Assembly (NCBI GenBank): GCA_016933055.1
Contig: JAFGBS010000028.1
Location: 240,001-272,000, forward strand
DNA length: 32,000 bases
Direction: 5' to 3'
Source of the DNA: Promethearchaeota archaeon
GTDB lineage: Archaea; Asgardarchaeota; Lokiarchaeia; Sigyniarchaeales; Promethearchaeaceae
The notes below the pieces were generated by a model. The model searched no databases, was not told where the DNA came from, and saw nothing but the letters and a program-made list of their open reading frames with translations. The position numbers were made by a program, and so were the translations under genes. Position 1 is the stretch's first letter, and every line of letters begins with the position of its first letter. Below are positions 1-14,389 of this stretch, in pieces.

Positions 1-3000
1 TGGACAAAATATGTTAATCGCGAGTTAAACAATCAAATCCGATGCATAGTGTGGATCATTTTTCAAGTTATTATATCCATTTCCGTTGCTTTATTACTAG
101 AATTAACGTGGTATGGTCGAATTCTCCTTTTTCTGCAAATTTATTCCATATTAATGCCCCCATTAAATTATTTTTTAAAAAATGCAGGATTTAAAGTAAT
201 AAAATGGACAGAACGCACTGAGGAATTTACAAAATTACTAATGGTTATTACATCGACCGCATATTTAGCCAATCTCTCCTTAAGTACATTCTTCATCCAT
301 TTACATTCATCTACAACAAAGATCTTAGGATATGTCCCCTTTTTATTGCTGATAGTTCATATCATATTCCATATCACCTATTTTCGGAAAGAAACATCCC
401 TTAAACGCTTTTATCGAACCTACAATTTATCATTTCCCTTTATCATGATCAGCCTGTACTTAATTAGATACCAAACACAAATATACGAACTTTTTCCACC
501 TTGGGTGCCGGTTCTTTCTATAATTTCTCCGATTTTATCTGTTATATTGTTATGGTTTGCGTTATTCTATTATTATTCCATGGTTAAACAATTCAATATT
601 ATTCTGAATTTCTTCTACCAATTTATTCTTATTTTTATTGGGTCTATCTATATTCTTCACTTAGTCATAATTCCCCTAAGCACTCAGTATGGTTATGGAT
701 ATTTACATACTGATCAGATATTGGTAAGTTGTGCTATAACGTTTATTGGTTTTTACTATATACGTAAGGCAGCATATTTCGAGATATACAAAGGCTTTTT
801 GCAAGAGGAACCTGTTCGATTCCGCTCTATAGGGATTATTGCTGGAATATTGCGTACTGTAGGAGTTATTTTATTCGTTGGTTCTATCCTAAGATTAGTA
901 AATGTCATCTTTAATATCGCAATAACTCGTTGGACTATAACAACTTTAAATCTCTGGCAATTATCATTAATAAATTCCATTTTTAATTGGTCATTGGCTA
1001 GTTTTCTAGGTCTATTTTTATTTCTCTTCTTCTTAAAAGGATATTTCAAAAATTTTGACCAATATTCTTATAATTCTCGATTTATAATTCGCATTTTTAC
1101 CGTGCTTGCAGCATCTTTTGCAGTAGGAATGACAGTTATTCTTTATGAAACTACATATTTATTTGCATTGCCGCCTATATTAGTCGGTTGTTATTTTTGG
1201 CTATATTTTATTCAGAAAAAGAATCCTTATAGAGCAAACTTAACCATAGGCGCAGCAAAATCCATTCTGGTCTTTTTCTTCGTCTTCTGGACGTTGCATC
1301 AATATATTTTCAGATATTTATTTGGATCAATACTTATTTCTTCATCTCTTCTAACTACCATAGAATTATTACTATCTGCTGGCATCACTGGATTTGTATT
1401 TTCCCGGACCTTCCAAAATATTATCCTAAAAGGAAAAAATACCTTCTCCTGGATATTATTAGTGAGTTCAGTTAGTGCTATTTGTTATAGTTGCTTTCTT
1501 TCTTTGGATAATCTTGGACTTATAATTTCAGAACCGACAATAGAATTGGATTTCACCTTAAATTTGACTCTTACTCTTAATTTTGGGATTTTATTATTGT
1601 ATCTAGCTGTGGCTGTCCATCAATGGAAAATATCAAAAAAGATTTGGGATGTAGCATGGTGGTTATGGTTGTTCCTACCAATAATTAACTTCACGATTAT
1701 TTATCAATCTATAAGGGGTATAGATACTATTACAGAATCATTTTTTGTATTTGGATTAGAGGTTTCTGGTTCCGTATTATTAACAATAATAATATCTACA
1801 TTACTATATTTACCCATTATTTTAACCAAGTTTCAGAAAGCATACAAATGGTTTTTCTTTTTAACATGGATTGAAGCGATTCCCGTATGGATCTGGCTAG
1901 CTCCAAACATATTTCGAGATCCTAATTCTATATATTTATCTCCCTTATTTGTAACTGGATTATCTTTAATTTCTGCTGTTCCACTTCTATTTTCATTAAA
2001 ATATTGGAGAATAATTGCGGGAGTATGGATATTAATTGCTCTAATAAATGCGATGTTTCTTTCTATTTTGATTGACATTAGTTTTATCCCAGACATGATT
2101 ATGGATGTTTTTATCCATATCACTGTTTATGGTTTGTACATTATCATTTTCATATCTAACCCCCTCATAAGAGAAAGCTGGAAGAATTATGATTATGGGA
2201 TCCTGGTAGGATATCTATTGATGATTATAGGTGCATCCGTAGTAGTATTCGGATTTTCGTATGTGCTTACCCTTGATTATTTATACGCAATCAGCATCTC
2301 TGCTTTTTTCACCGGGATAATCATGATATCTGGCAGATATGTCAAATTAATCCATAACAGACTCAATCCTTATGCGGTTTTACTAATGGCAGCAGGTATT
2401 GGATTAGGATCTTTTCTATTTTTATACGAATTTAAGTTATTTCCAGTTAATCTTGATTTTACTTGGACTTTCCTTAATCAAACACTCCAAAATACCGTTT
2501 TTCCATTCTCCATAGCATTGATTTCATCCGGCGGAATTATACTGCTAGCACAAGCCCGTCAGTTAATAAATAAAAAACACTGGCGTTTAATGTATGCTTT
2601 TTTTGCTGTTGGAATTGGGGTTGCTATTGGTTCAGTGTTAGATAGTCTATTAGATTTGCCGAACCCTTTATTTGCAGCCATTGTGACTTTTTGGAGTGTA
2701 TTATCCTCATATCCAACATTTAGATATAAAAAACCAATCTTTTGGGGTCTATTTCCCCTTTTTATTGCATCATTGTCTGTTTATGGCTTTGAACAATTGA
2801 ATATAGGCTTTAATTGGTCATTTCACACCATTATTGGTGTGAACTACACATTTTGGATATTTTCCTTCAGTCTAGCGTCTCTTATTATTCATAAAGTGGT
2901 TAGTTTGTATTTCATGAGAAAATACCTCAAAGTTACAAGAGAATTAACTGATATGGGGATTTCAGATTATAAAACACTTCCGTTCGATGATGAGGACGAT

Positions 3001-6000
3001 GTATTGATGATACAGCAAAAGGAAATAGCAGTAAATTTAATTCAATCCTTGGAAATTTTACCACAATTTTACACTACCCCTCGTAAAATAGCTTCCTTAT
3101 ATTCTCTATTTTTATCTTTATCTCTGTATTCACTAAGTTATTTCATTTCTTTTATTACACCAATACCGTTGCTATTTCAAATTGAAGTATTCATTTTTTT
3201 GATTTCAGTCAGCACATTCATTAATCTAGCATACATTAAACGAAATGATATCTTTCAAAATCTGCATACTATTCGTTTTATTCGATTTATTGCTACGAAC
3301 TTGTTGTACGCTTCCATTTTGTACGGAATCATTATTCTTAATCGAATTATAATTCCGATTATCCCTGAATTAGTTAGCGGATTTTCCCTCACTGCAAATC
3401 TTACACTTTCTTTGAATATAGCATTAGATAGCATATTTTTTTATGTGATATTCATCATTTTAAGTCAATGGATTGCTTTTTATAACAAATTAATCACATT
3501 AATGGTTAAAATTATCAGTTGGATAACTTTTATTACTGCTATTAGTTATTTCCTCTACGCAATCACCTCTTTTACATACATTGTAGTTTTAATCGTAACA
3601 ATTGGAAGTTACCTTATTGTGATCCATTTACGCAATTTTCATAAGCATTATGCTATGACTTTGCGATTGTTGACTGATACCCTCTCTTCATCATCAGAAA
3701 AAATGACCGCACTGGAAGATTATGAAGAAAATGAATATTTAGAAGCACAATCAAAAGTACTGGGAATTGATTCTCCCATCCCCATTCCCCCTCCTTTGGA
3801 AATTCACTACGAGGATCTAGCAAGTGAGGCTGACTTTATGGAAGTAAAAGAAGTTTTAGATGCAATTTTACCACTAGACTCATCAGAAATGCCCTTTACT
3901 GCAGATTCACTATCATCTCAAATATCATCCAAGAAATCCCTATCGGACACTCTTGAATTAAGAGCAAAGCAAGAAAAACGGAGTAAGATCTTATATTCTA
4001 TTATCGGATTTTTTGATGCTTGGATTAAACAAGGAATTATTTTAGAACTTTCATATCTTGCAAGCTTAATATTCTCTAATATGTTCCCAAATATTAATGA
4101 GATCTCATTATACCATGTTTATGTCTTCAGATTGTTTATGTTCCTGTGTATCGCAACTACATTTTATAATTTTAAGAAATTGATTCCTGCAAACTATCGA
4201 TTAGTAGTTGTACAAATATTATCAACTCTGTTTATGGTTACGACCATATTAACTCCCTTTTCAGTGATTTCTGTGTATGGAACAGAGCTGAATCTTATAA
4301 TTGATCGATATTACTGGTCAAATATTATGTTCCTAGTATCCATTACCATATTTCTTCTTTTACTGCAAATTCAGCTTGTAATAAGAAATTATGTAGAAAC
4401 CAAAAATGTTCATCTGCGTCAACTAATAATCGATAAATGGAATGATGTCATTCAACCAATGCTTCTCATCTTAGCCGCTTACATTATTGCAAATATTATT
4501 TCCATCAATACACCACTTATCACACGACTTATAATAGCGGCCTTAATCCTATTTACCGAAGCCATTATTGAAAAGTATATTTTAAAAATATTTAATAGAC
4601 TGACTCGTGCACGGCTTCTTCTTTATTCTTGGATTCTGATTAATATATTGGGCATAATTCAAGTCGTTCAATTCCTTCCAACCTTGAAATTCTCATGGAC
4701 GTTAGGTATATTAATGCTACTAATTCTCGCATTCCTACAATACATAACTCTATATCTCTACTACTCACTAAAGAACGAAAAAATCATCCGAACCTATAAT
4801 ATTAATCCAATAGTTTTAAACCACTTTCTATTTCGAATGATGAATAGGCATGTTGACTGGGCTAAGAAAAGGAGTCCTAAGCATCTATATCAGCAGTATG
4901 AGCATTCAGAAAAACTAATCACATATAATGATTTCATCAAACCGAAATATAATTTCATGGCTTTAATAACTTATATTCTTATTAGTGCACTGCTTTCCGC
5001 TTTAATTTACGAATCATCTATAAAATCATTCATTTTAGGATATATCACAGAGTTAAAAGCTTTGGGGGTTAGTATTAATAATCTTTCTGCTTTATGGAAC
5101 CATCCCACAGGATTGCAGCTTCTAATTTTAAGTGGATTACCTATAATCATTGCTATAATTCTATCATTTGGGCTATTTTTTCAAGATAAATTTACGTTTA
5201 GAATTCTTCATGCTATTACGCGAGATATTTTCTTGATACTTTTATGGGTTTTGATCTCTGGAGGAATTTTATTCTATTCACTCGCGCTTTTGCAATTGTG
5301 GAAAGGAATTACGTATTCAAATTTATTAACCCCTGGCATGATAGCGATCATTTCAATCGCACAATATTATACAATCTATCTTATAACCGATATCGCCATT
5401 CATTCTACGAAAAATATAGACAAATTGGAATCAGAATTTTCTTCAATTAACTTAGAGACAATGAGTCATAGTGATTTAATGGAGTTATTGGCTAAAATCG
5501 AACCAAAACGTCTGAAAATTATTAAAAATCTAAACATGATATTAGGAATTATTATATACGGTACATTATCTGTGATAGCATATTTAATCGTTTATATATT
5601 CTCTCAATCTATCATTTTATCTCTTAGTGGAGCATTATTAATAGTATACGGTCAGTCAGAATTAAATTACTACATTCTAAAAGCGTTTCCCTCCAAGATC
5701 AGTTTCTATTATTCCTTAATGTCATGGATCTGTTTCAGTGTTTTAATATCCTTTAGTATCCCAATAGTATTTTGGGGAAATAATCCTGAATGGGTAGTCA
5801 ATTCTGATTTAAATATTGTGGTGTATATTACCAACGGATTTTTCGTTTCGACGTGTTTTTGCATTTTTAGTATTTTGTCTTTTGCTACACTCTTTATTTT
5901 AAAACGAAAATACTCCGATTACACCATCAAATTTCAATGGATGAAATATTTACGAATAGGAACTTATTTTACAATAACGGCAGTAGTTTTTGTATTGTTT

Positions 6001-6966
6001 ATTCCTACTTCGATTATGTTTGCATCATTTCTAAGTAGTCTTGTGTTATATTTGGAGATGGTAGGAGAGAGATATTTTCCAATCTTTATGAACAAAATTA
6101 CTCGTTTAATCCGTAGTATTAGTGCATTTATTATTTCTATTATTCTATGCTATTGGATCTATTCCTATATGGAAAATACATTTAATTTTGAAATCGCTTT
6201 AGCTGTTTCGATTCTTTTATTCACAATTTTAAGCCAATTAATATTCAATCCTTGGGAGTATAAAAAAGTCGCCGGTCCAATATTTTGGGGTTTTATTTCT
6301 GCCGAAATCGGATATCTAATCAGTAATATTGTCATAGTAAATAATATTCTACTTGGGATCGCTTCTGGACTGATTTTAATGGGATTGTATCCAATAATTT
6401 TTGAATTTTCACGCTTTGTGGACTTTTTCAGAAATATCGTAGAAAATATAAGAATTTTCTACCAGAAAATCATCTATTTCTTCAAAAACTTCTGGATTAA
6501 TCTAAAAAACTTTTATACGAAAAATAAAATATGGTTGACTCTTATCATGGTGTCGGCCATGTTTACAGGATTATTATTCGGGCTACGAATCCTCCTTCCT
6601 TTATACCAAGCAATGTTTATTAGCGCTTCGATAGCGTCTACATTTCTATTTCCGATCTTCATCACTCCAAAAGCTTTGAAAGACGAGAAATCGTTCTCCC
6701 GAATGGTTTATTATTCCGCAATTATCTATGTATTTGCAAACATCGCGATTTTTTCATTTGTGAAGATTAATATCATCTGGTTTTTGCTCTCATTAGTTTT
6801 ATTCAGTTCGATCTTATTAGTAGTGATTTATCGGCAAGAGACCCTATATAATTTATCGGTGCGCTGGAGATTGATTGGGTTGATAATAACGATATTATCT
6901 GCGGTTGTTCTCGTCTCCATGGTAGTTTTATATGTTATTGGGTTGATTTCCATAAAGTTTTTCTAA
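1..6966 (+). CDS. Giant polytopic membrane protein of unknown function, 5'-truncated at the window edge (>2320 aa)
   Basis: The frame of the 49..6966 ORF is open from base 1 (TGG ACA AAA TAT GTT AAT CGC... = WTKYVNRELNNQIRCIVW), so the true start lies upstream. It has dozens of hydrophobic 20-25 aa segments with short basic loops and no recognisable catalytic motif. Confidence 0.85.
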   Translation, partial: WTKYVNRELNNQIRCIVWIIFQVIISISVALLLELTWYGRILLFLQIYSILMPPLNYFLKNAGFKVIKWTERTEEFTKLLMVITSTAYLANLSLSTFFIHLHSSTTKILGYVPFLLLIVHIIFHITYFRKETSLKRFYRTYNLSFPFIMISLYLIRYQTQIYELFPPWVPVLSIISPILSVILLWFALFYYYSMVKQFNIILNFFYQFILIFIGSIYILHLVIIPLSTQYGYGYLHTDQILVSCAITFIGFYYIRKAAYFEIYKGFLQEEPVRFRSIGIIAGILRTVGVILFVGSILRLVNVIFNIAITRWTITTLNLWQLSLINSIFNWSLASFLGLFLFLFFLKGYFKNFDQYSYNSRFIIRIFTVLAASFAVGMTVILYETTYLFALPPILVGCYFWLYFIQKKNPYRANLTIGAAKSILVFFFVFWTLHQYIFRYLFGSILISSSLLTTIELLLSAGITGFVFSRTFQNIILKGKNTFSWILLVSSVSAICYSCFLSLDNLGLIISEPTIELDFTLNLTLTLNFGILLLYLAVAVHQWKISKKIWDVAWWLWLFLPIINFTIIYQSIRGIDTITESFFVFGLEVSGSVLLTIIISTLLYLPIILTKFQKAYKWFFFLTWIEAIPVWIWLAPNIFRDPNSIYLSPLFVTGLSLISAVPLLFSLKYWRIIAGVWILIALINAMFLSILIDISFIPDMIMDVFIHITVYGLYIIIFISNPLIRESWKNYDYGILVGYLLMIIGASVVVFGFSYVLTLDYLYAISISAFFTGIIMISGRYVKLIHNRLNPYAVLLMAAGIGLGSFLFLYEFKLFPVNLDFTWTFLNQTLQNTVFPFSIALISSGGIILLAQARQLINKKHWRLMYAFFAVGIGVAIGSVLDSLLDLPNPLFAAIVTFWSVLSSYPTFRYKKPIFWGLFPLFIASLSVYGFEQLNIGFNWSFHTIIGVNYTFWIFSFSLASLIIHKVVSLYFMRKYLKVTRELTDMGISDYKTLPFDDEDDVLMIQQKEIAVNLIQSLEILPQFYTTPRKIASLYSLFLSLSLYSLSYFISFITPIPLLFQIEVFIFLISVSTFINLAYIKRNDIFQNLHTIRFIRFIATNLLYASILYGIIILNRIIIPIIPELVSGFSLTANLTLSLNIALDSIFFYVIFIILSQWIAFYNKLITLMVKIISWITFITAISYFLYAITSFTYIVVLIVTIGSYLIVIHLRNFHKHYAMTLRLLTDTLSSSSEKMTALEDYEENEYLEAQSKVLGIDSPIPIPPPLEIHYEDLASEADFMEVKEVLDAILPLDSSEMPFTADSLSSQISSKKSLSDTLELRAKQEKRSKILYSIIGFFDAWIKQGIILELSYLASLIFSNMFPNINEISLYHVYVFRLFMFLCIATTFYNFKKLIPANYRLVVVQILSTLFMVTTILTPFSVISVYGTELNLIIDRYYWSNIMFLVSITIFLLLLQIQLVIRNYVETKNVHLRQLIIDKWNDVIQPMLLILAAYIIANIISINTPLITRLIIAALILFTEAIIEKYILKIFNRLTRARLLLYSWILINILGIIQVVQFLPTLKFSWTLGILMLLILAFLQYITLYLYYSLKNEKIIRTYNINPIVLNHFLFRMMNRHVDWAKKRSPKHLYQQYEHSEKLITYNDFIKPKYNFMALITYILISALLSALIYESSIKSFILGYITELKALGVSINNLSALWNHPTGLQLLILSGLPIIIAIILSFGLFFQDKFTFRILHAITRDIFLILLWVLISGGILFYSLALLQLWKGITYSNLLTPGMIAIISIAQYYTIYLITDIAIHSTKNIDKLESEFSSINLETMSHSDLMELLAKIEPKRLKIIKNLNMILGIIIYGTLSVIAYLIVYIFSQSIILSLSGALLIVYGQSELNYYILKAFPSKISFYYSLMSWICFSVLISFSIPIVFWGNNPEWVVNSDLNIVVYITNGFFVSTCFCIFSILSFATLFILKRKYSDYTIKFQWMKYLRIGTYFTITAVVFVLFIPTSIMFASFLSSLVLYLEMVGERYFPIFMNKITRLIRSISAFIISIILCYWIYSYMENTFNFEIALAVSILLFTILSQLIFNPWEYKKVAGPIFWGFISAEIGYLISNIVIVNNILLGIASGLILMGLYPIIFEFSRFVDFFRNIVENIRIFYQKIIYFFKNFWINLKNFYTKNKIWLTLIMVSAMFTGLLFGLRILLPLYQAMFISASIASTFLFPIFITPKALKDEKSFSRMVYYSAIIYVFANIAIFSFVKINIIWFLLSLVLFSSILLVVIYRQETLYNLSVRWRLIGLIITILSAVVLVSMVVLYVIGLISIKFF

Positions 6967-6994
6967 TTTGCCCAATACATTGTTTAAGGTAATA

Positions 6995-7717
6995 ATGAAA
7001 GACTCTGATTTCCATATGCATTCGAATTATTCGGATGGTTTTAACTTGATAAGAGAAATGGTGGAAGCTGCAATTGATCGAGATTTAAAAAATATCGCAA
7101 TAACCGATCATATAAGTGCATCGGGTCATTTTTTATATACATTTAGCAAATCCCGCCTATCGTTAGAAAATTATCTCGATGAAATTACTCGCCTAAGAAG
7201 GAAGTATGAAAAAAAAATACATATTTATGCAGGAGTAGAAATCACAGATGATTTTGTACATACTCCTAAATCCCACCTTCTGGAAAATAAGTTGTATGAG
7301 TATATAGATTTTATCTCCCTTATCTTGATCGAAACAATCTTAATCGCAGAACCCGTCAGAACTGCTCTTAATGTGCGAGAATATTTGAATCAAATTGGAG
7401 ATGAACAGATTTTGGTGGTATTTGCTCATCCCGATTATAGCGCCATGAATTTTTCCACTTTTCAATTGCTTTTAAAGAACCGTATCGGTTTCGAATTAAA
7501 TGAGAGTAAATTATCAGAGAGAGATGCTGCTTTCTTTTTAGAATTTGTAAATCAATTAAGTCAAAAAGAGAAGAAGGATTTACTCATTACCGTCGGTAGT
7601 GATGCTCATCGTGTTAAAGATGTAGGAAGACTAAATTTTGTTTTTTCAATAGTTGAGGATAATAATTTATGGAAATATGTGATCACTCCTCCAAAAGTTC
7701 AAGATTTCATTCTATAA
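6995..7717 (+). CDS. PHP-domain phosphoesterase (HisK/PolX-PHP-like)
   Basis: All PHP metal motifs are present: DFHMHSNYSDG, AITDH, GVE, HPD, GSDAH. ATG at 6995 preceded by AAGGT is preferred over TTG 6968. Confidence 0.88.
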   Translation: MKDSDFHMHSNYSDGFNLIREMVEAAIDRDLKNIAITDHISASGHFLYTFSKSRLSLENYLDEITRLRRKYEKKIHIYAGVEITDDFVHTPKSHLLENKLYEYIDFISLILIETILIAEPVRTALNVREYLNQIGDEQILVVFAHPDYSAMNFSTFQLLLKNRIGFELNESKLSERDAAFFLEFVNQLSQKEKKDLLITVGSDAHRVKDVGRLNFVFSIVEDNNLWKYVITPPKVQDFIL

Positions 7718-7841: not shown

Positions 7842-8129
7842 TTGCCTCGAAAAACTAAAAAGCAGATTCAAGAGGAAATAAATGAAATCCTCGAGCAAGC
7901 GAATTATTTATTAGATCAGATATCAGCAGATAATTCTGTACCACGTAATATTCGTCGTGTTACGGGAGAAGCAACGGAAGCAATCAATGATACAGAAGAG
8001 TCTCCTGCAGTGAATGCAAGTAACGCTATATCCCTATTGGATGATTTATCGCAAGATCCAAATTGCCCATTGCATACACGAACCCGAATTTACCAGATCT
8101 TATCCTTACTCGAACAAATTAGAGATTAA
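7842..8129 (+). CDS. UPF0147 family archaeal protein
   Basis: 95 aa helical protein with the family signatures DNSVPRNIRR and DPNCPLHTRTRIYQILSLLE. Confidence 0.85.
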   Translation: MPRKTKKQIQEEINEILEQANYLLDQISADNSVPRNIRRVTGEATEAINDTEESPAVNASNAISLLDDLSQDPNCPLHTRTRIYQILSLLEQIRD

Positions 8130-9649
8130 GTTTTTTCTTTTTCTTTTTCGTCTTTTTTTTGAATGAATATATCAAGTCCAATTGTTACGAGACGCGGACC
8201 AAAGGTGACGATAACAAACACATTCTCCCTAGATCCTCGCTCTATTCTACCATCTCTAATAGAATAAAAAATTGTTCTCTGGCCATATGTACTCGCAAGA
8301 AGGTGGTCTGGAAAATTAAAATCTGCTCGAAATTCTTCGGCAGCATGAGTATGAAGATTATATTGAGAATCTTCCATTGATTTTTGAACAAAAAAATAAT
8401 GGAGATCAAGAAAGTTGCCCATTTCATTCTCATTTATAACAAGACTCGTTGTTGTATGATTTGATTTAATCGTGATAAATCCCGATTTCATGAGGGGGAA
8501 TTGTTCTTTAATTTCTTTCATTATGTGATCGATGGTATCTTGGATAGAAATAAGTTGAGTGATGCAAAAACTCTGAACTTTTATATCATACCCTAAGTGA
8601 ATCTGATGGGAATTGTCAAATTCGGAATCTAATTTGTATGTAATATAGTTTTCTATAGGTTTCTTTTTGGATACGATTCCAAAGAATCGATTTGCATTGC
8701 GAAAAGCCCATATTCGCAATAAATTTTTAAATTTAAGATTTAGTATCTCGGTAGCTTCATGCCACCCGCGAACTAGTTGGGAAGATTCAAGAGTAGGGGC
8801 ACCACTCGCTAATATAATTCTATTCCACCAATTTTGTATGAAACCTGGGATTTGAAATAAGCGAGTAAAAAAAGTGGTTGGAGTTTCTCCTCCCAACATT
8901 CTGAGATTTAATTCCAAAAAAACATTTGATTGAAATTTGTATTTATCAATATTAAGAATAAGATCATTCCAATTTCCGCTGGCAATAATTAATGGATGAG
9001 TAACATCTAAGCTGGAAGTAATTTTAGCCATAGAATTAGCAATATTGCCGTTATCCAGAAGTGGAAGAATTCCTAAATGTAAATTAATAAAATCAATTTT
9101 TAACGGAAGATTCTGGATTTTTATCCATTTAATAAATTCTTCAAAATCGTCAGATCTTAGGTATTCTGCTTGATACAGAGGATATACTACGATTCCAACT
9201 ATTTTTGCTTTATTTTTTGAGTAAAATGCCTCTAATTTGTTTTGTCCATTTTTTTCAGGGTAGATTGAGGCAAGCATTTTCGAAGATGAGATAACTTTAC
9301 CCATTTGTAGGGTGAAATCGTTCGGAATTCCGAATTTTTCATTCAATTCTATCGCTTGTAGGATTGGTAGGTGAATTGTACTGGATTCCAGTTCCAATTC
9401 TAATTGTTGATATGTTATTTTTCTTCGATAAAATACGGGATGACCATGGATTTTTAGTTTCAATAATTCTTGTACAGGTTTTGGAAATGAAATTTCATCG
9501 AAAATGGGCCAAATCTGGCCATCAATGTTTGGAAGATAATAGGGGTTTGAATAGTTTATTCCAAAAATGCATGAAAAATTAGGACAATATAGTTTTTCCA
9601 TATAATCCACCGATCCATATAAATAATAAGGGATTATGGGAGTAAACAC
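8126..9649 (-). CDS. Fusion protein: degenerate amidohydrolase_2-like TIM barrel + C-terminal YjbQ (UPF0047) domain
   Basis: N-terminal part has IVGIVVYPLYQ, NVFLELN, RIILASGAP and RNANRFFGI, echoing GIKLHP / NVYFDTS / RILFGSDYP / ENAARLFGL. C-terminal part has NHTTTSLVINENE, DHLLASTYG, DGRIERG and TFGPRLV, echoing YjbQ HTTA..INE / SHIKASLLG / DGPR. The exact start is uncertain. Confidence 0.65.
   Translation of the reverse strand: MFTPIIPYYLYGSVDYMEKLYCPNFSCIFGINYSNPYYLPNIDGQIWPIFDEISFPKPVQELLKLKIHGHPVFYRRKITYQQLELELESSTIHLPILQAIELNEKFGIPNDFTLQMGKVISSSKMLASIYPEKNGQNKLEAFYSKNKAKIVGIVVYPLYQAEYLRSDDFEEFIKWIKIQNLPLKIDFINLHLGILPLLDNGNIANSMAKITSSLDVTHPLIIASGNWNDLILNIDKYKFQSNVFLELNLRMLGGETPTTFFTRLFQIPGFIQNWWNRIILASGAPTLESSQLVRGWHEATEILNLKFKNLLRIWAFRNANRFFGIVSKKKPIENYITYKLDSEFDNSHQIHLGYDIKVQSFCITQLISIQDTIDHIMKEIKEQFPLMKSGFITIKSNHTTTSLVINENEMGNFLDLHYFFVQKSMEDSQYNLHTHAAEEFRADFNFPDHLLASTYGQRTIFYSIRDGRIERGSRENVFVIVTFGPRLVTIGLDIFIQKKDEKEKEKT
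8130..8160 (+). terminator. Probable oligo-T intrinsic terminator after UPF0147
   Basis: The T-rich tract GTTTTTTCTTTTCTTTTTCGTCTTTTTTTT directly follows the stop. It is also the Lys/Glu-rich tail of the convergent gene. Confidence 0.4.
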
Positions 9650-9671: not shown

Positions 9672-10505
9672 TCATTCATCATCTTCATAAGTTTGACTTG
9701 AAAAGAATTTCTTCTTATCTTCGGTTGTATACAATTCCAAATAATATCCTCCACGACTGAATCCTAAAGCGGTCAATATATTACCGATTAATCGGATAAC
9801 GTTAATCATTAGCTGAAACGATGTATAGTAGGAAGGTCCCAAAGGTATAAAACCCAAGAATAATCCAACAACCAAATAAAAGATATATAAAATAGCACCA
9901 TAGACCATTAAACGCATTTCCTTAGGAAAAGGTGCTTGAGCTTCCTCTTCTAATCTATCTCCAACAAAATTGATACCCCATTTACGTAAAAGTATATACC
10001 CCACGATCCCGAGAGAGGGAATTGCAATCTCTATCAACTTAATCCAAAAAGCAGCTGTATTTAATAGGTTGTATGTATAAAATATTGTTGTTAAGGAATT
10101 CCCTGCTGAAAACTGGCCAGATAGCTCCTCATATTTCACAATTACTACTATTGTTCCTGTAAGGACCACAATACTTTGTAATATTAACATTCCAAGTAGT
10201 GCAAAATAAGCTTGACGTAAAAAAAATCCTCCATATTCGGTTTCAGATCGCTTTAAAGCTGATAGAAAATCAATTAAATACAGAATTTCTACTATTGCGA
10301 ATATATACAGTATTATCATTGCTGCTGTAATAGGATTTACGATGATATCAAATATGAATATACTCGTAAGAAAGTTAACTATCATAATAACAAGCAATGT
10401 GTTCCCGTACATTCGCATTTTTCGTCCCATACGTGCCAAAACAGCGGAATAGGGAGAGAAGGGGGAATTATCACTGTCTAAGGACATAAAAGAGAGAATT
10501 GACAA
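9672..10505 (-). CDS. Hypothetical multi-pass membrane protein
   Basis: 277 aa ORF with about 6 hydrophobic helices and an acidic C-terminal tail. Confidence 0.7.
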   Translation of the reverse strand: MSILSFMSLDSDNSPFSPYSAVLARMGRKMRMYGNTLLVIMIVNFLTSIFIFDIIVNPITAAMIILYIFAIVEILYLIDFLSALKRSETEYGGFFLRQAYFALLGMLILQSIVVLTGTIVVIVKYEELSGQFSAGNSLTTIFYTYNLLNTAAFWIKLIEIAIPSLGIVGYILLRKWGINFVGDRLEEEAQAPFPKEMRLMVYGAILYIFYLVVGLFLGFIPLGPSYYTSFQLMINVIRLIGNILTALGFSRGGYYLELYTTEDKKKFFSSQTYEDDE

Positions 10506-12242: not shown

Positions 12243-13004
12243 TTAATCTTCGTCTTTCTTCGATGTGAGTTGACTCAACCAGATTAAGATAGGTGATATT
12301 GTCCATATAGTATAACCAATAGCGGTTATCCACCACGCGTATATATTTGGAATACCCACTAATATAAAATACAGCATACCAGCGGGTATAAATGCAATTC
12401 CAATTGTCAGAAGAAACATTTTTTTCTTAAGTTGTCTTTTATCAACCTTGCGAGTTAATAATAGCAACATTATAACCGTATAGATAAATAATGCAAACGG
12501 TACAGCGGATAATATTAATGTCATTATGCCTACATCGGGTTGAACGATGTAGTTTGTTCCTGGGGGTGGTAAGTCCTCTGGAGGAATTAAATTATAGGAT
12601 AAGTCATAAACCTGAACACTGTCAATAATTACAAGCCAGACTGCAATTATTGCGAAAATACCAATTTCAATGTATAATCTGGTTTTATTTATTGAATCTT
12701 GACCTCCCTTTATTATATCATATGATTTGTATATCAAGAATGCCATCGCTAAAACCGCAATTACGCCGATATCTCTTAATCTGTTCCCTATAAAATGTAC
12801 TGCTGGTGAAATTGGGAGTAATACAAAAACAAACGCGTCTGCTATAATATACACTACCCAACATAAGAATGCAGCAAAATACATTTTATTAAGAATATAA
12901 TCTCGTTTTTGTCGGAGAATCGCAAAAGCTGATATTGTAAATAACAAAATATTTACTAATTTAGCAATAAGAGCAAACTGCTCCACTGGATTGATGTATA
13001 CCAT
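12243..13004 (-). CDS. Stand-alone seven-transmembrane protein (HisKA_7TM-like sensor-type domain without a kinase)
   Basis: Seven hydrophobic helices counted by eye. ATG at 13004 (MVYINPVEQ) is preferred over the ORF-track start at 13070. Confidence 0.65.
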   Translation of the reverse strand: MVYINPVEQFALIAKLVNILLFTISAFAILRQKRDYILNKMYFAAFLCWVVYIIADAFVFVLLPISPAVHFIGNRLRDIGVIAVLAMAFLIYKSYDIIKGGQDSINKTRLYIEIGIFAIIAVWLVIIDSVQVYDLSYNLIPPEDLPPPGTNYIVQPDVGIMTLILSAVPFALFIYTVIMLLLLTRKVDKRQLKKKMFLLTIGIAFIPAGMLYFILVGIPNIYAWWITAIGYTIWTISPILIWLSQLTSKKDED

Positions 13005-13069
13005 AGAGATCTGATTGTGATTCAGACCTAAATATATGGGGAAAATAAGAAGAAAAAAAAATAGTTTCA

Positions 13070-14389
13070 CTATTTTCTGTAATAACCATATTTTTTGACC
13101 GCATTTTCCATTGCAAGAACATTTTCGTGCCGTGCTTCATCCGGAATGCCTGCAATCGCCCCATCAATAAGGTAGCCCCCACCTTCGGAACAATCTTCTA
13201 TATTTTGCCTAACATACTCCTCCACTTGTTGAGGAGTTCCTGCAACTAATAAAGAAGCGGGAACATTTCCGCGGATACACACATATTGTCCCATCATCTC
13301 CTTTACTTGCTTCATATCAATATCGTGGAACCAATAAACCATTTTTCCTTTATGTTTTTTAGCAAACTCTGCCAAGTACTCTAATCGATCACTATAACAC
13401 CCTTCAAAGAAAGGAACTGGAATGATTTCACGCTCTATCATGCCTTCCATCATCATAGTAAGACTTGGCCAATAGAATTCCTCGAATTGTTTATTATTCA
13501 TAAATCCATTGGCGCCTCGATGTAAAGGAATAAAACACAGTCTAGGTACACCCTCTGAGTCATCTGATTCATAAATACTTTTCCCAGAGTCAATACTTCT
13601 CAATGTAGCCTTTGCTAGGATATCACAGAGTCTTTTTAACTCATCAGGTCGTCGATACATATCCAGCATGGTCCCTCTCATACCCCTAACTGAATCCGAG
13701 ATTCGATCAAATGAAGCCATATATAATCCACCCCCCATACCCCCAAGAGGAAATCCAAGAGATTCCATCTTTTTCTTATAAGGTCCCAAGGTTAGTAAAT
13801 ACGGAAGCAGTTTAAGCTTGCTCAAATTAACTTTTCTAACCATTTTTAGAAAATCTTTATCAATTAGGAATAATCCCAGGTCCATTCCAGAACCCATAAA
13901 TGCAAATTTGTCCAAACCTGGGAATTTACTGAAGGCACTAAGACCTACATTCTGTTTTGCTACAATTTTTCGAAGGAAAAATCCCGTAGGATCATCTAAA
14001 CACTCATCATATTCATCTTGTTTCATCCATTCTCCTTCAACGGCTTGAAAAGGTCGATTATCAGGTAGTCGAGAGTTGGGGTCTTTTGCTCCCGGCCATT
14101 TGAAATTTTGTATTCCAAGTACATCATAAAAATGTCCAAATCCATTTTGAGAGACTCCAGGATATAAATCCCAATCATACCGTTTACAGATTTTTATAGT
14201 CGCTAGTAAATTCTTTCGTCCACTATACCAAACCTCTTTTTGACTGAGTCCAGCTTGATTAGAAATAAAAAACGGGTTCATCTGCGGTGTTAATGGTACT
14301 CTATCTGGTTCTTTCAAGTTTATGGCATCATTCACTCTTTGGATTCTGTCTTTAAATAATTGCTTTTTGTGTTTTGACATATTATTCAC
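13070..14389 (-). CDS. Uroporphyrinogen decarboxylase (URO-D)/MtaA-like methyltransferase family protein
   Basis: Motifs INLKEPDRVPL, FDRISDSVRGMRGTMLDMYRRP, FIPLHRG and CIRGNVPASLL..GTP..VEEY..GGGYLI. Adjacent to a corrinoid protein gene. Confidence 0.85.
   Translation of the reverse strand: MNNMSKHKKQLFKDRIQRVNDAINLKEPDRVPLTPQMNPFFISNQAGLSQKEVWYSGRKNLLATIKICKRYDWDLYPGVSQNGFGHFYDVLGIQNFKWPGAKDPNSRLPDNRPFQAVEGEWMKQDEYDECLDDPTGFFLRKIVAKQNVGLSAFSKFPGLDKFAFMGSGMDLGLFLIDKDFLKMVRKVNLSKLKLLPYLLTLGPYKKKMESLGFPLGGMGGGLYMASFDRISDSVRGMRGTMLDMYRRPDELKRLCDILAKATLRSIDSGKSIYESDDSEGVPRLCFIPLHRGANGFMNNKQFEEFYWPSLTMMMEGMIEREIIPVPFFEGCYSDRLEYLAEFAKKHKGKMVYWFHDIDMKQVKEMMGQYVCIRGNVPASLLVAGTPQQVEEYVRQNIEDCSEGGGYLIDGAIAGIPDEARHENVLAMENAVKKYGYYRK

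Follow-up and report, generated by a model that had tools for sequence, protein, structure and literature searches.

The window analysed here, a stretch of 32,000 nucleotides (nt; positions 240001-272000 of a 354-kb contig), opens inside a giant open reading frame (ORF) which is a real conserved gene from the genome of an uncultured Promethearchaeota (Loki-type Asgard) archaeon. Its product of 3,508 amino acids (aa) belongs to an undescribed family of giant polytopic membrane proteins, with rare exceptions single-copy, 2,500-4,900 aa long and confined to one Asgard class. The architecture is fixed and colinear family-wide: a short conserved N-terminal module (N-module), a long and rapidly evolving, variable N-arm, a Trp-rich core of ~400 aa, a C-arm that is likewise long, rapidly evolving and variable, and a conserved C-terminal module (C-module) of ~300 aa. 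Identity and architecture of the giant protein, taken jointly, can be held with high confidence.

The giant frame and the layout of its product

On the + strand, frame 1 runs without a stop from the first base of the window until the stop at 6964-6966 (2,321 codons). A sequence-only reading of the window had described this long stop-free frame as entering from before the window, and recovery of the upstream DNA bears this out and makes the ORF larger than noted: an ATG at contig position 236440, 3,561 nt upstream of the window, opens the full frame of 3,508 aa. The window holds the C-terminal two-thirds of it; residues 1-1187, which comprise the N-module (aa 1-200) and the greater part of the N-arm, lie upstream. 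The ATG is the genuine start, because the first ~120-200 residues align with the extreme N-termini of relatives. The GC content of the giant-gene region is 30-34% (genome: 31%), and since stop codons are frequent in such DNA, a stop-free frame of 10.5 kb is far from chance. An assembly chimera, considered as an objection from the start, is ruled out by the colinear end-to-end alignment with orthologues from closed genomes, and the impression of one real chain with a rare number of transmembrane (TM) helices is confirmed. The parts of the gene are as follows:

Contig (C2) 236440-246966, i.e., L002:8440-18966, + strand: complete giant gene, of which the window bears the C-terminal 2,321 codons plus stop
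Window 1..1359, + strand: distal N-arm (aa 1188-1640), a polytopic region whose conservation is limited to close relatives
Window 1360..2619, + strand: family-wide core (aa 1641-2060), with 14 predicted TM helices and a ~27-aa outward loop with a beta-hairpin
Window 1606..2367, + strand: best-conserved core stretch (aa 1723-1976), bearing the Trp motifs of the sequence-only reading
Window 2620..5883, + strand: C-arm (aa 2061-3148), likewise polytopic and with conservation limited to close relatives
Window 2908-3153, 3625-4101, 4759-4953 and 5386-5535, + strand: hydrophilic inserts of the C-arm
Window 5884..6963, + strand: C-module (aa 3149-3508), with 11 predicted TM helices and a ~39-aa K-rich amphipathic helix

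The layout emerges from profile comparisons. Profiles built in windows along the subfamily to which the giant protein belongs recover three blocks common to the whole family (residues 1-200, ~1600-2000 and ~3200-3508). In relatives, the first block is invariably found at the very N-terminus and the third at the very C-terminus. A full-length profile-profile alignment of this subfamily (6 sequences) with a sister family (22 sequences) spans 1-3502 vs 1-3072 (E 3e-106) and places 2,787 columns on one colinear path. Conservation of the N-terminal peptide can be recognised, ..NEKIKKLTDALWRFWW.. of the giant protein corresponding to ..SEE+I+KATELL.K.WWF.. in relatives. The distal part of the N-arm is 56% identical to the nearest relative and 23-28% identical to subfamily members.

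Within the core, aa 1723-1976 are the only part that plain BLASTP detects in distant family members. Across 23 diverse sequences, 13 core residues, six of them Trp, are invariant (W1736, W1743, P1747, N1750, G1777, S1778, P1792, W1810, W1819, W1856, W1863, F1873, P1908), and D1762, K1797, E1812, N1823, N1870 and Y1925 are nearly so. The motifs first picked out by eye (IWDVAWWLW, YKWFF..TW, YWRIIAGVW, and PIFWG occurring twice) could all be located in the translation, the first three holding five of the six family-invariant Trp (W1736, W1743, W1810, W1856, W1863). The giant protein matches the core profile with an E of 7.9e-115 and all 13 invariants present, being itself one of the 23 profile rows; independent evidence of its family membership is provided by BLASTP of the protein against relatives.

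An AlphaFold model of the core (predicted local distance difference test, pLDDT, 80.8; predicted TM-score, pTM, 0.67) has two K-rich loops flanking one TM hairpin, and by the positive-inside rule these loops would be cytoplasmic. The outer loop of the same hairpin (~27 aa) comprises N1750, D1762, the beta-hairpin and the invariant G1777-S1778. E1812 is placed mid-helix by the model, N1870 inside another predicted helix and the conserved Lys at the inner interface, and helix breaks coincide with the invariant P1792 and P1908. In the C-module (model pLDDT 83.3, pTM 0.50), F3321, F3358, E3467 and R3477 are nearly invariant in the family alignment; YPIIFEFS and YRQETLYNLSVRWRL of the giant protein compare with the family consensus YPFIFxLEEL and E..xKISIKWRF, and a conserved E...SxxWR motif precedes the last helix.

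The chain consists of near-continuous TM hairpins with a period of ~63 aa, along with six hydrophilic inserts of 50-159 aa, the longest of which (window 3625-4101; 159 aa) is acidic and rich in S/T/P. A Kyte-Doolittle scan marks 77 segments for the full-length protein and 50 for its window part. Since shuffling at unchanged composition already yields 58 +/- 3.5 segments, the hydropathy count is weak evidence. Uncharged runs of >=18 aa number 70 in the giant protein vs 41 +/- 3.7 in shuffles, and the loops are by turns K/R-rich and acidic or neutral. Hydropathy segmentation overlooks Trp-rich helices; the Hessa dG scale, tried for helix counting, was dropped because it recovered no more than 5 of the 14 helices in the core model. 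The two AlphaFold models contain 25 TM-length helices per 780 aa (14 in the 420-aa core, 11 in the 360-aa C-module). Extrapolated from this density, with ~500 aa of hydrophilic inserts left out and no dedicated predictor involved, the whole chain is estimated to hold ~95-100 TM helices and its window part ~63, which makes the earlier figure of about 50 or more helices in the stop-free frame a lower bound.

Family range, selection and arm growth

A survey of homologues across Asgard genomes, as recommended with the sequence-only reading, restricts the family to one class. Among 5.8 billion proteins searched by word index, three relatives of similar length came up (56%, 58% and 28% identity), two of them from Promethearchaeota metagenome-assembled genomes, and an exhaustive HMMER search of 1.84 billion representatives found 56 clusters only, all at E<=1.4e-11 and with no weaker tail. 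In six-frame genome searches, the core profile matched 116 of the 154 genomes of the order (28 of the 39 high-quality ones), where the core-bearing frames are 2,000-4,900 aa long, free of internal stops and nearly always single-copy; in the genome analysed here the giant gene is single-copy as well. The shortest full-length member retrieved is a frame of 2,545 aa (G241). Outside the order, one of 240 genomes was matched, i.e., 1 of 7 from sister orders and 0 of 233 from other Asgard classes. This sole outside match is a divergent core (G123:C195:3923-5065, - strand, E 9.6e-32) in a 2,615-aa frame from another order of the class, and it may represent the deepest branch of the family.

Among the orthologues are DSAG12_00898 (QEE15075.1; 3,940 aa) of the cultured Promethearchaeum syntrophicum MK-D1, NEF87_002906 (UYP46621.1; 3,146 aa) of the cultured Ca. 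Lokiarchaeum ossiferum, and MCF2139232.1 (4,296 aa) of Ca. Harpocratesius repetitus. Without exception their annotation reads “hypothetical protein”, and literature searches yielded no description of the family or of its locus tags. These named orthologues possess N-module, core (E 1e-112 to 1e-125 vs the core profile) and C-module in the same order as the giant protein, but they are between 360 aa shorter and 1,400 aa longer, and their arms are not alignable by single-sequence methods. The closed genome of Ca. L. ossiferum encodes a second paralogue of 4,908 aa, ~240 kb from the 3,146-aa one (G137 frames L062:778-15504 and L061:826-10266, respectively). Two core matches occur in five genomes, with both full-length only in Ca. 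L. ossiferum; the remaining genomes are single-copy.

The ratio of nonsynonymous to synonymous substitution rates (dN/dS, ω) was calculated for orthologue pairs of relatives with dS < 1 and ranges from 0.10 to 0.13 for the core and from 0.20 to 0.26 for the arms. In these relatives purifying selection acts on every region, and the arms are constrained, not filler. The nearest relative of the giant protein itself is too distant for dS; at the amino-acid level, the core is 66% and the arms are 54-56% identical to it, and the C-module is 69% identical to that of the second-nearest relative.

The suggestion that the protein is repeat-built fares differently in the two branches of the family. In the sister family, internal repeats are significant: windows match each other at up to 99.9% probability, and with a recent duplication masked, off-diagonal alignments reach E 4.6e-10 to 6e-7, whereas a reversed control gives only E 5e-4. 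The repeat offsets lie near 125 and 250 aa, also between N- and C-arms; length differences are mainly indels of 252-254 aa (N-arm), 250 aa (C-arm) and, in several cases, 62-68 aa; and the K/R autocorrelation of the sister proteins peaks at 62, 125, 190, 250, 314 and 380 aa. We conclude that the family grows by duplication of topology-preserving units, namely hairpins, ~4-TM units and ~8-TM blocks. For the subfamily of the giant protein, the suggestion is not demonstrated, the best self-match (412-1220 vs 2519-3111, E 6.7e-5) being equalled by the reversed-profile control (E 7e-5). In the protein alone, a BLASTP self-comparison detects no repeats at E<=10, and hhalign windows from a 3-sequence multiple alignment yield nothing convincing (64% at best). 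Its K/R autocorrelation peaks at 65, 135, 192 and 251 aa, and for a period set a priori at 125 aa the harmonic statistic is reached by 9 of 400 (hydropathy) and 6 of 400 (K/R) block shuffles. The giant protein is probably of the same repeat-built origin, the basis being colinearity with the sister family and modest periodicity, not detectable repeats.

Two further observations concern the N-arm of the sister family. A recent tandem duplication of a ~250-aa (~8-TM) block is present in the G189 orthologue (L029:6944-16165), where aa 602-799 match aa 854-1045 with 198 bits, and an extra N-arm block of ~250 aa is found in 10 of the 22 aligned sister-family proteins.

Comparison with known proteins and possible function

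Searches of the whole protein against Pfam and NCBIfam returned zero families at E<=1, in agreement with the initial remark that it lacks a nucleotide-binding domain, an enzyme or a large extracellular domain. Pfam searches with 23 cores gave only scattered single matches at E>=0.014, and the core profile retrieved nothing meaningful from PDB sequences; a full-length match to a characterised family was thus found neither in Pfam and NCBIfam nor among PDB sequences. AlphaFold models combined with Foldseek, the route proposed earlier, were applied to the core and the C-module and gave no significant match to a solved fold: for the core, the best Foldseek E is 0.22 (TM-score <=0.21) and the best VIA-align Z, which involves nothing but helical hairpins, is 8.6; for the C-module the best E is 0.84 and the best Z 10.6, the latter from bundles of three helices. 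The rows for both models are generic helical hairpins or bundles and fall short of the noise level that the tool gives for helical models. Absence from such fold lists does not prove a new fold. The best ESM Atlas score (0.81) is below the useful range.

Several known groups were considered individually. For GT-C glycosyltransferases and oligosaccharyltransferases, there is no PMT, STT3 or ArnT-type Pfam match; the Foldseek and VIA rows for the core contain no GT-C chain either, although a missing match does not exclude a GT-C fold. Tandem transporter fusions (MFS, APC, DMT and others) were discarded as no transporter domain of Pfam or NCBIfam occurs along the chain. The NuoL/ND5 subunits of complex I and Mrp-type antiporters resemble the core in having 14-TM modules with conserved intramembrane Lys/Glu, and several of their chains are among its weak Foldseek rows, but these rows have a probability of <=0.21 and a TM-score of 0.16-0.19, i.e., noise level, and there is no match to Pfam Proton_antipo_M.

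Piezo was rejected by sequence, the zero Pfam families at E<=1 including the Piezo ones, and it is not listed in the fold searches of the core and C-module models, which cover those two regions only. Piezo1 and Piezo2 have 38 TM helices per chain, with nine 4-TM units per blade. The likeness lies in the very large polytopic chain with a conserved module and long, less conserved TM arms, and in a possible ~4-TM (~125-aa) unit of the giant family. However, the giant protein is archaeal and Piezo eukaryotic, the ~95-100 predicted spans in one chain are by estimate ~2.5 times Piezo's 38, and a large extracellular cap is missing.

The DUF2339-like character that had been suggested is not borne out by sequence: PF10101 has no match in the protein or in any of 21 genomes of the order, its own included, while two control genomes were positive. 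Arc3A of P. aeruginosa (PA5114), a DUF2339 protein, has 35 TM helices and no catalytic residues, its TM number varies between species, and its authors link function to TM density (PMC8926400). The giant family shares the dense and numerous TM helices, the lack of a catalytic motif and the varying TM number; in contrast, Arc3A is bacterial, has ~35 TM helices and an Arc3B partner, and is a defence gene. No Arc3B-type partner was found among the 10 neighbouring proteins scanned, but this partner is optional even in bacteria (PMC8926400).

As to function, we tentatively put forward a hub-and-arms device, in which a polar site of the core is coupled to two large in-membrane arms; we regard it as possible rather than likely. 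The core would form a small polar site or pathway within the bilayer, built on the near-invariant mid-helix E1812 and the near-invariant N1870 in a predicted helix, together with the outward loop (near-invariant Asp, invariant Gly-Ser) and helices kinked at invariant prolines. The two extensible arms would supply a very large in-plane footprint and might link the core site to membrane tension, curvature or lipid packing, sensing or transmitting this physical state. The resemblance of such a device to Piezo would be one of logic, not of homology. The device is supported by the polar invariants and low dN/dS of the core, by a fixed centre with modular, variable but constrained arms and by the lack of any enzyme or transporter signature in the searches; moreover, K/R-rich loops flank the conserved outward loop. 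Several points count against it. E1812 is replaced in 2 of the 23 aligned sequences, and the conserved polar residues could equally be explained by folding or lipid contacts. Well-assembled genomes from two genera of the order lack both core and C-module when searched with both profiles, which shows that the gene can be dispensed with; of these genera, g14 and g18, the latter is without it in 9 of 10 genomes. In Piezo the conserved part is C-terminal, here it lies in the centre between two arms, and since the reversed-profile control is as good as the best self-match, no repeat claim is made for the protein itself. Finally, the fold searches of the two models back none of the functions, and no channel shows similarity to the giant protein.

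A passive in-membrane scaffold comes next in plausibility, though we would not call it probable: ~50 TM hairpins would stiffen, shape or partition the bilayer, e.g., along the thin protrusions of Loki-type cells, with no conducting or catalytic site and with conserved modules serving only folding or self-association. Such a role would suit a chain of which ~85% is TM hairpins with no soluble domain, arms that vary in length by whole blocks and are still under purifying selection, the absence of conserved operon partners, and a core whose best (non-significant) Foldseek matches are alpha-solenoid/TPR arrays, a hint of an extended antiparallel helix stack. However, the sharp conservation of the core, with its in-helix polar residues, outward loop motif and ω of 0.10-0.13, goes beyond usual packing needs.

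The core could also be an unrecognised enzyme or transporter, for instance one whose substrates are surface polymers or lipid-linked glycans on the outer face, with the arms as accessory anchors, which we consider unlikely. The outward loop between two TM helices, with its near-invariant Asp and invariant Gly-Ser, would be in keeping with such an activity, as would the conserved Lys at the inner interface, the mid-membrane Glu and, in this locus, the gene of a PHP/CpsB-like phosphoesterase downstream of the giant gene. Yet Pfam and NCBIfam yield nothing at E<=1 and neither PDB sequences nor folds match, the core contains no invariant His or acidic pair, and in the relatives' loci examined the PHP gene is never next to the giant gene.

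By analogy, the giant protein might protect the membrane in the manner of Arc3A, its field of TM helices sequestering or buffering damaging lipids (e.g., lysolipids) or blocking membrane-attacking toxins; this seems rather improbable to us. Among proteins built on a similar plan, Arc3A alone has been studied for its function (PMC8926400), and the giant family likewise varies in TM number and has no enzyme motifs. However, the two are unrelated by the PF10101 searches, no Arc3B-like neighbour is among the proteins scanned, and the giant gene is near-universal and single-copy, unlike patchy defence genes. Moreover, the ether lipids of archaea are not known to be attacked by ester phospholipases, which also counts against such a role.

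Hardly any credence is left for the view that there is no functional gene here and that the ORF is a pseudogene, an artefact of chimeric assembly or a hydrophobic frame arisen by chance in T-rich DNA: it can point to the T-rich coding strand (AT skew -0.06 to -0.19) and to the ~58 hydropathy peaks that shuffles of the same composition already give, but it is contradicted by a frame that stays open for 3,508 codons at a GC content of 31%, by the >100 genomes, closed ones included, in which frames of 2,500-4,900 aa are intact, by dN/dS of 0.1-0.26 in relatives and by homology that is colinear from end to end.

Because no relative, domain or fold is detectable, the function of the giant protein is likely something not yet catalogued in membrane biology. 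The boldest extension of the hub-and-arms device, which we regard as a long shot, is that the ~100-helix chain represents a new class of in-membrane machine, whose arms of 4-8-TM units would report or impose tension or curvature on a polar hub and contribute to the protrusion-rich, wall-less architecture of Loki-type cells. Carriage by two cultured species (MK-D1 and L. ossiferum) makes expression, cryo-electron tomography (cryo-ET) localisation and structure work feasible now, and the modular growth of the arms offers a natural case study for the evolution and insertion of extreme polytopic proteins.

Gene neighbourhood

Across the family loci there are no conserved partner genes, and the genes nearby have housekeeping roles and no relation to the giant gene; the Liv-type ABC operon that follows the giant gene in a single genus is local synteny only. 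Around the giant gene analysed here, the following genes are found:

Window 6968-7717, + strand: PHP-domain phosphoesterase of 249 aa, weakly CpsB/CapC-like
Window 8126-9649, - strand: protein of 507 aa, whose C-terminal ~110 aa are UPF0047 (YjbQ-like) and whose long N-terminal region has no Pfam match
Window 9672-10505 and 12243-13070, - strand: downstream polytopic membrane ORFs of 277 and 275 aa
L002:6761-7936 and L002:7914-8318, - strand: a 391-aa soluble and a 134-aa membrane protein gene, directly upstream of the giant gene and divergent from it

The start of the PHP gene 2 nt past the stop of the giant gene suggests that the two are co-transcribed. In none of the 13 relatives' loci examined does the PHP gene stand beside the giant gene, and the arrangement is specific to this locus. 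The 391-aa and 134-aa upstream genes have no Pfam match, and a rhomboid protease gene adjoins this pair.

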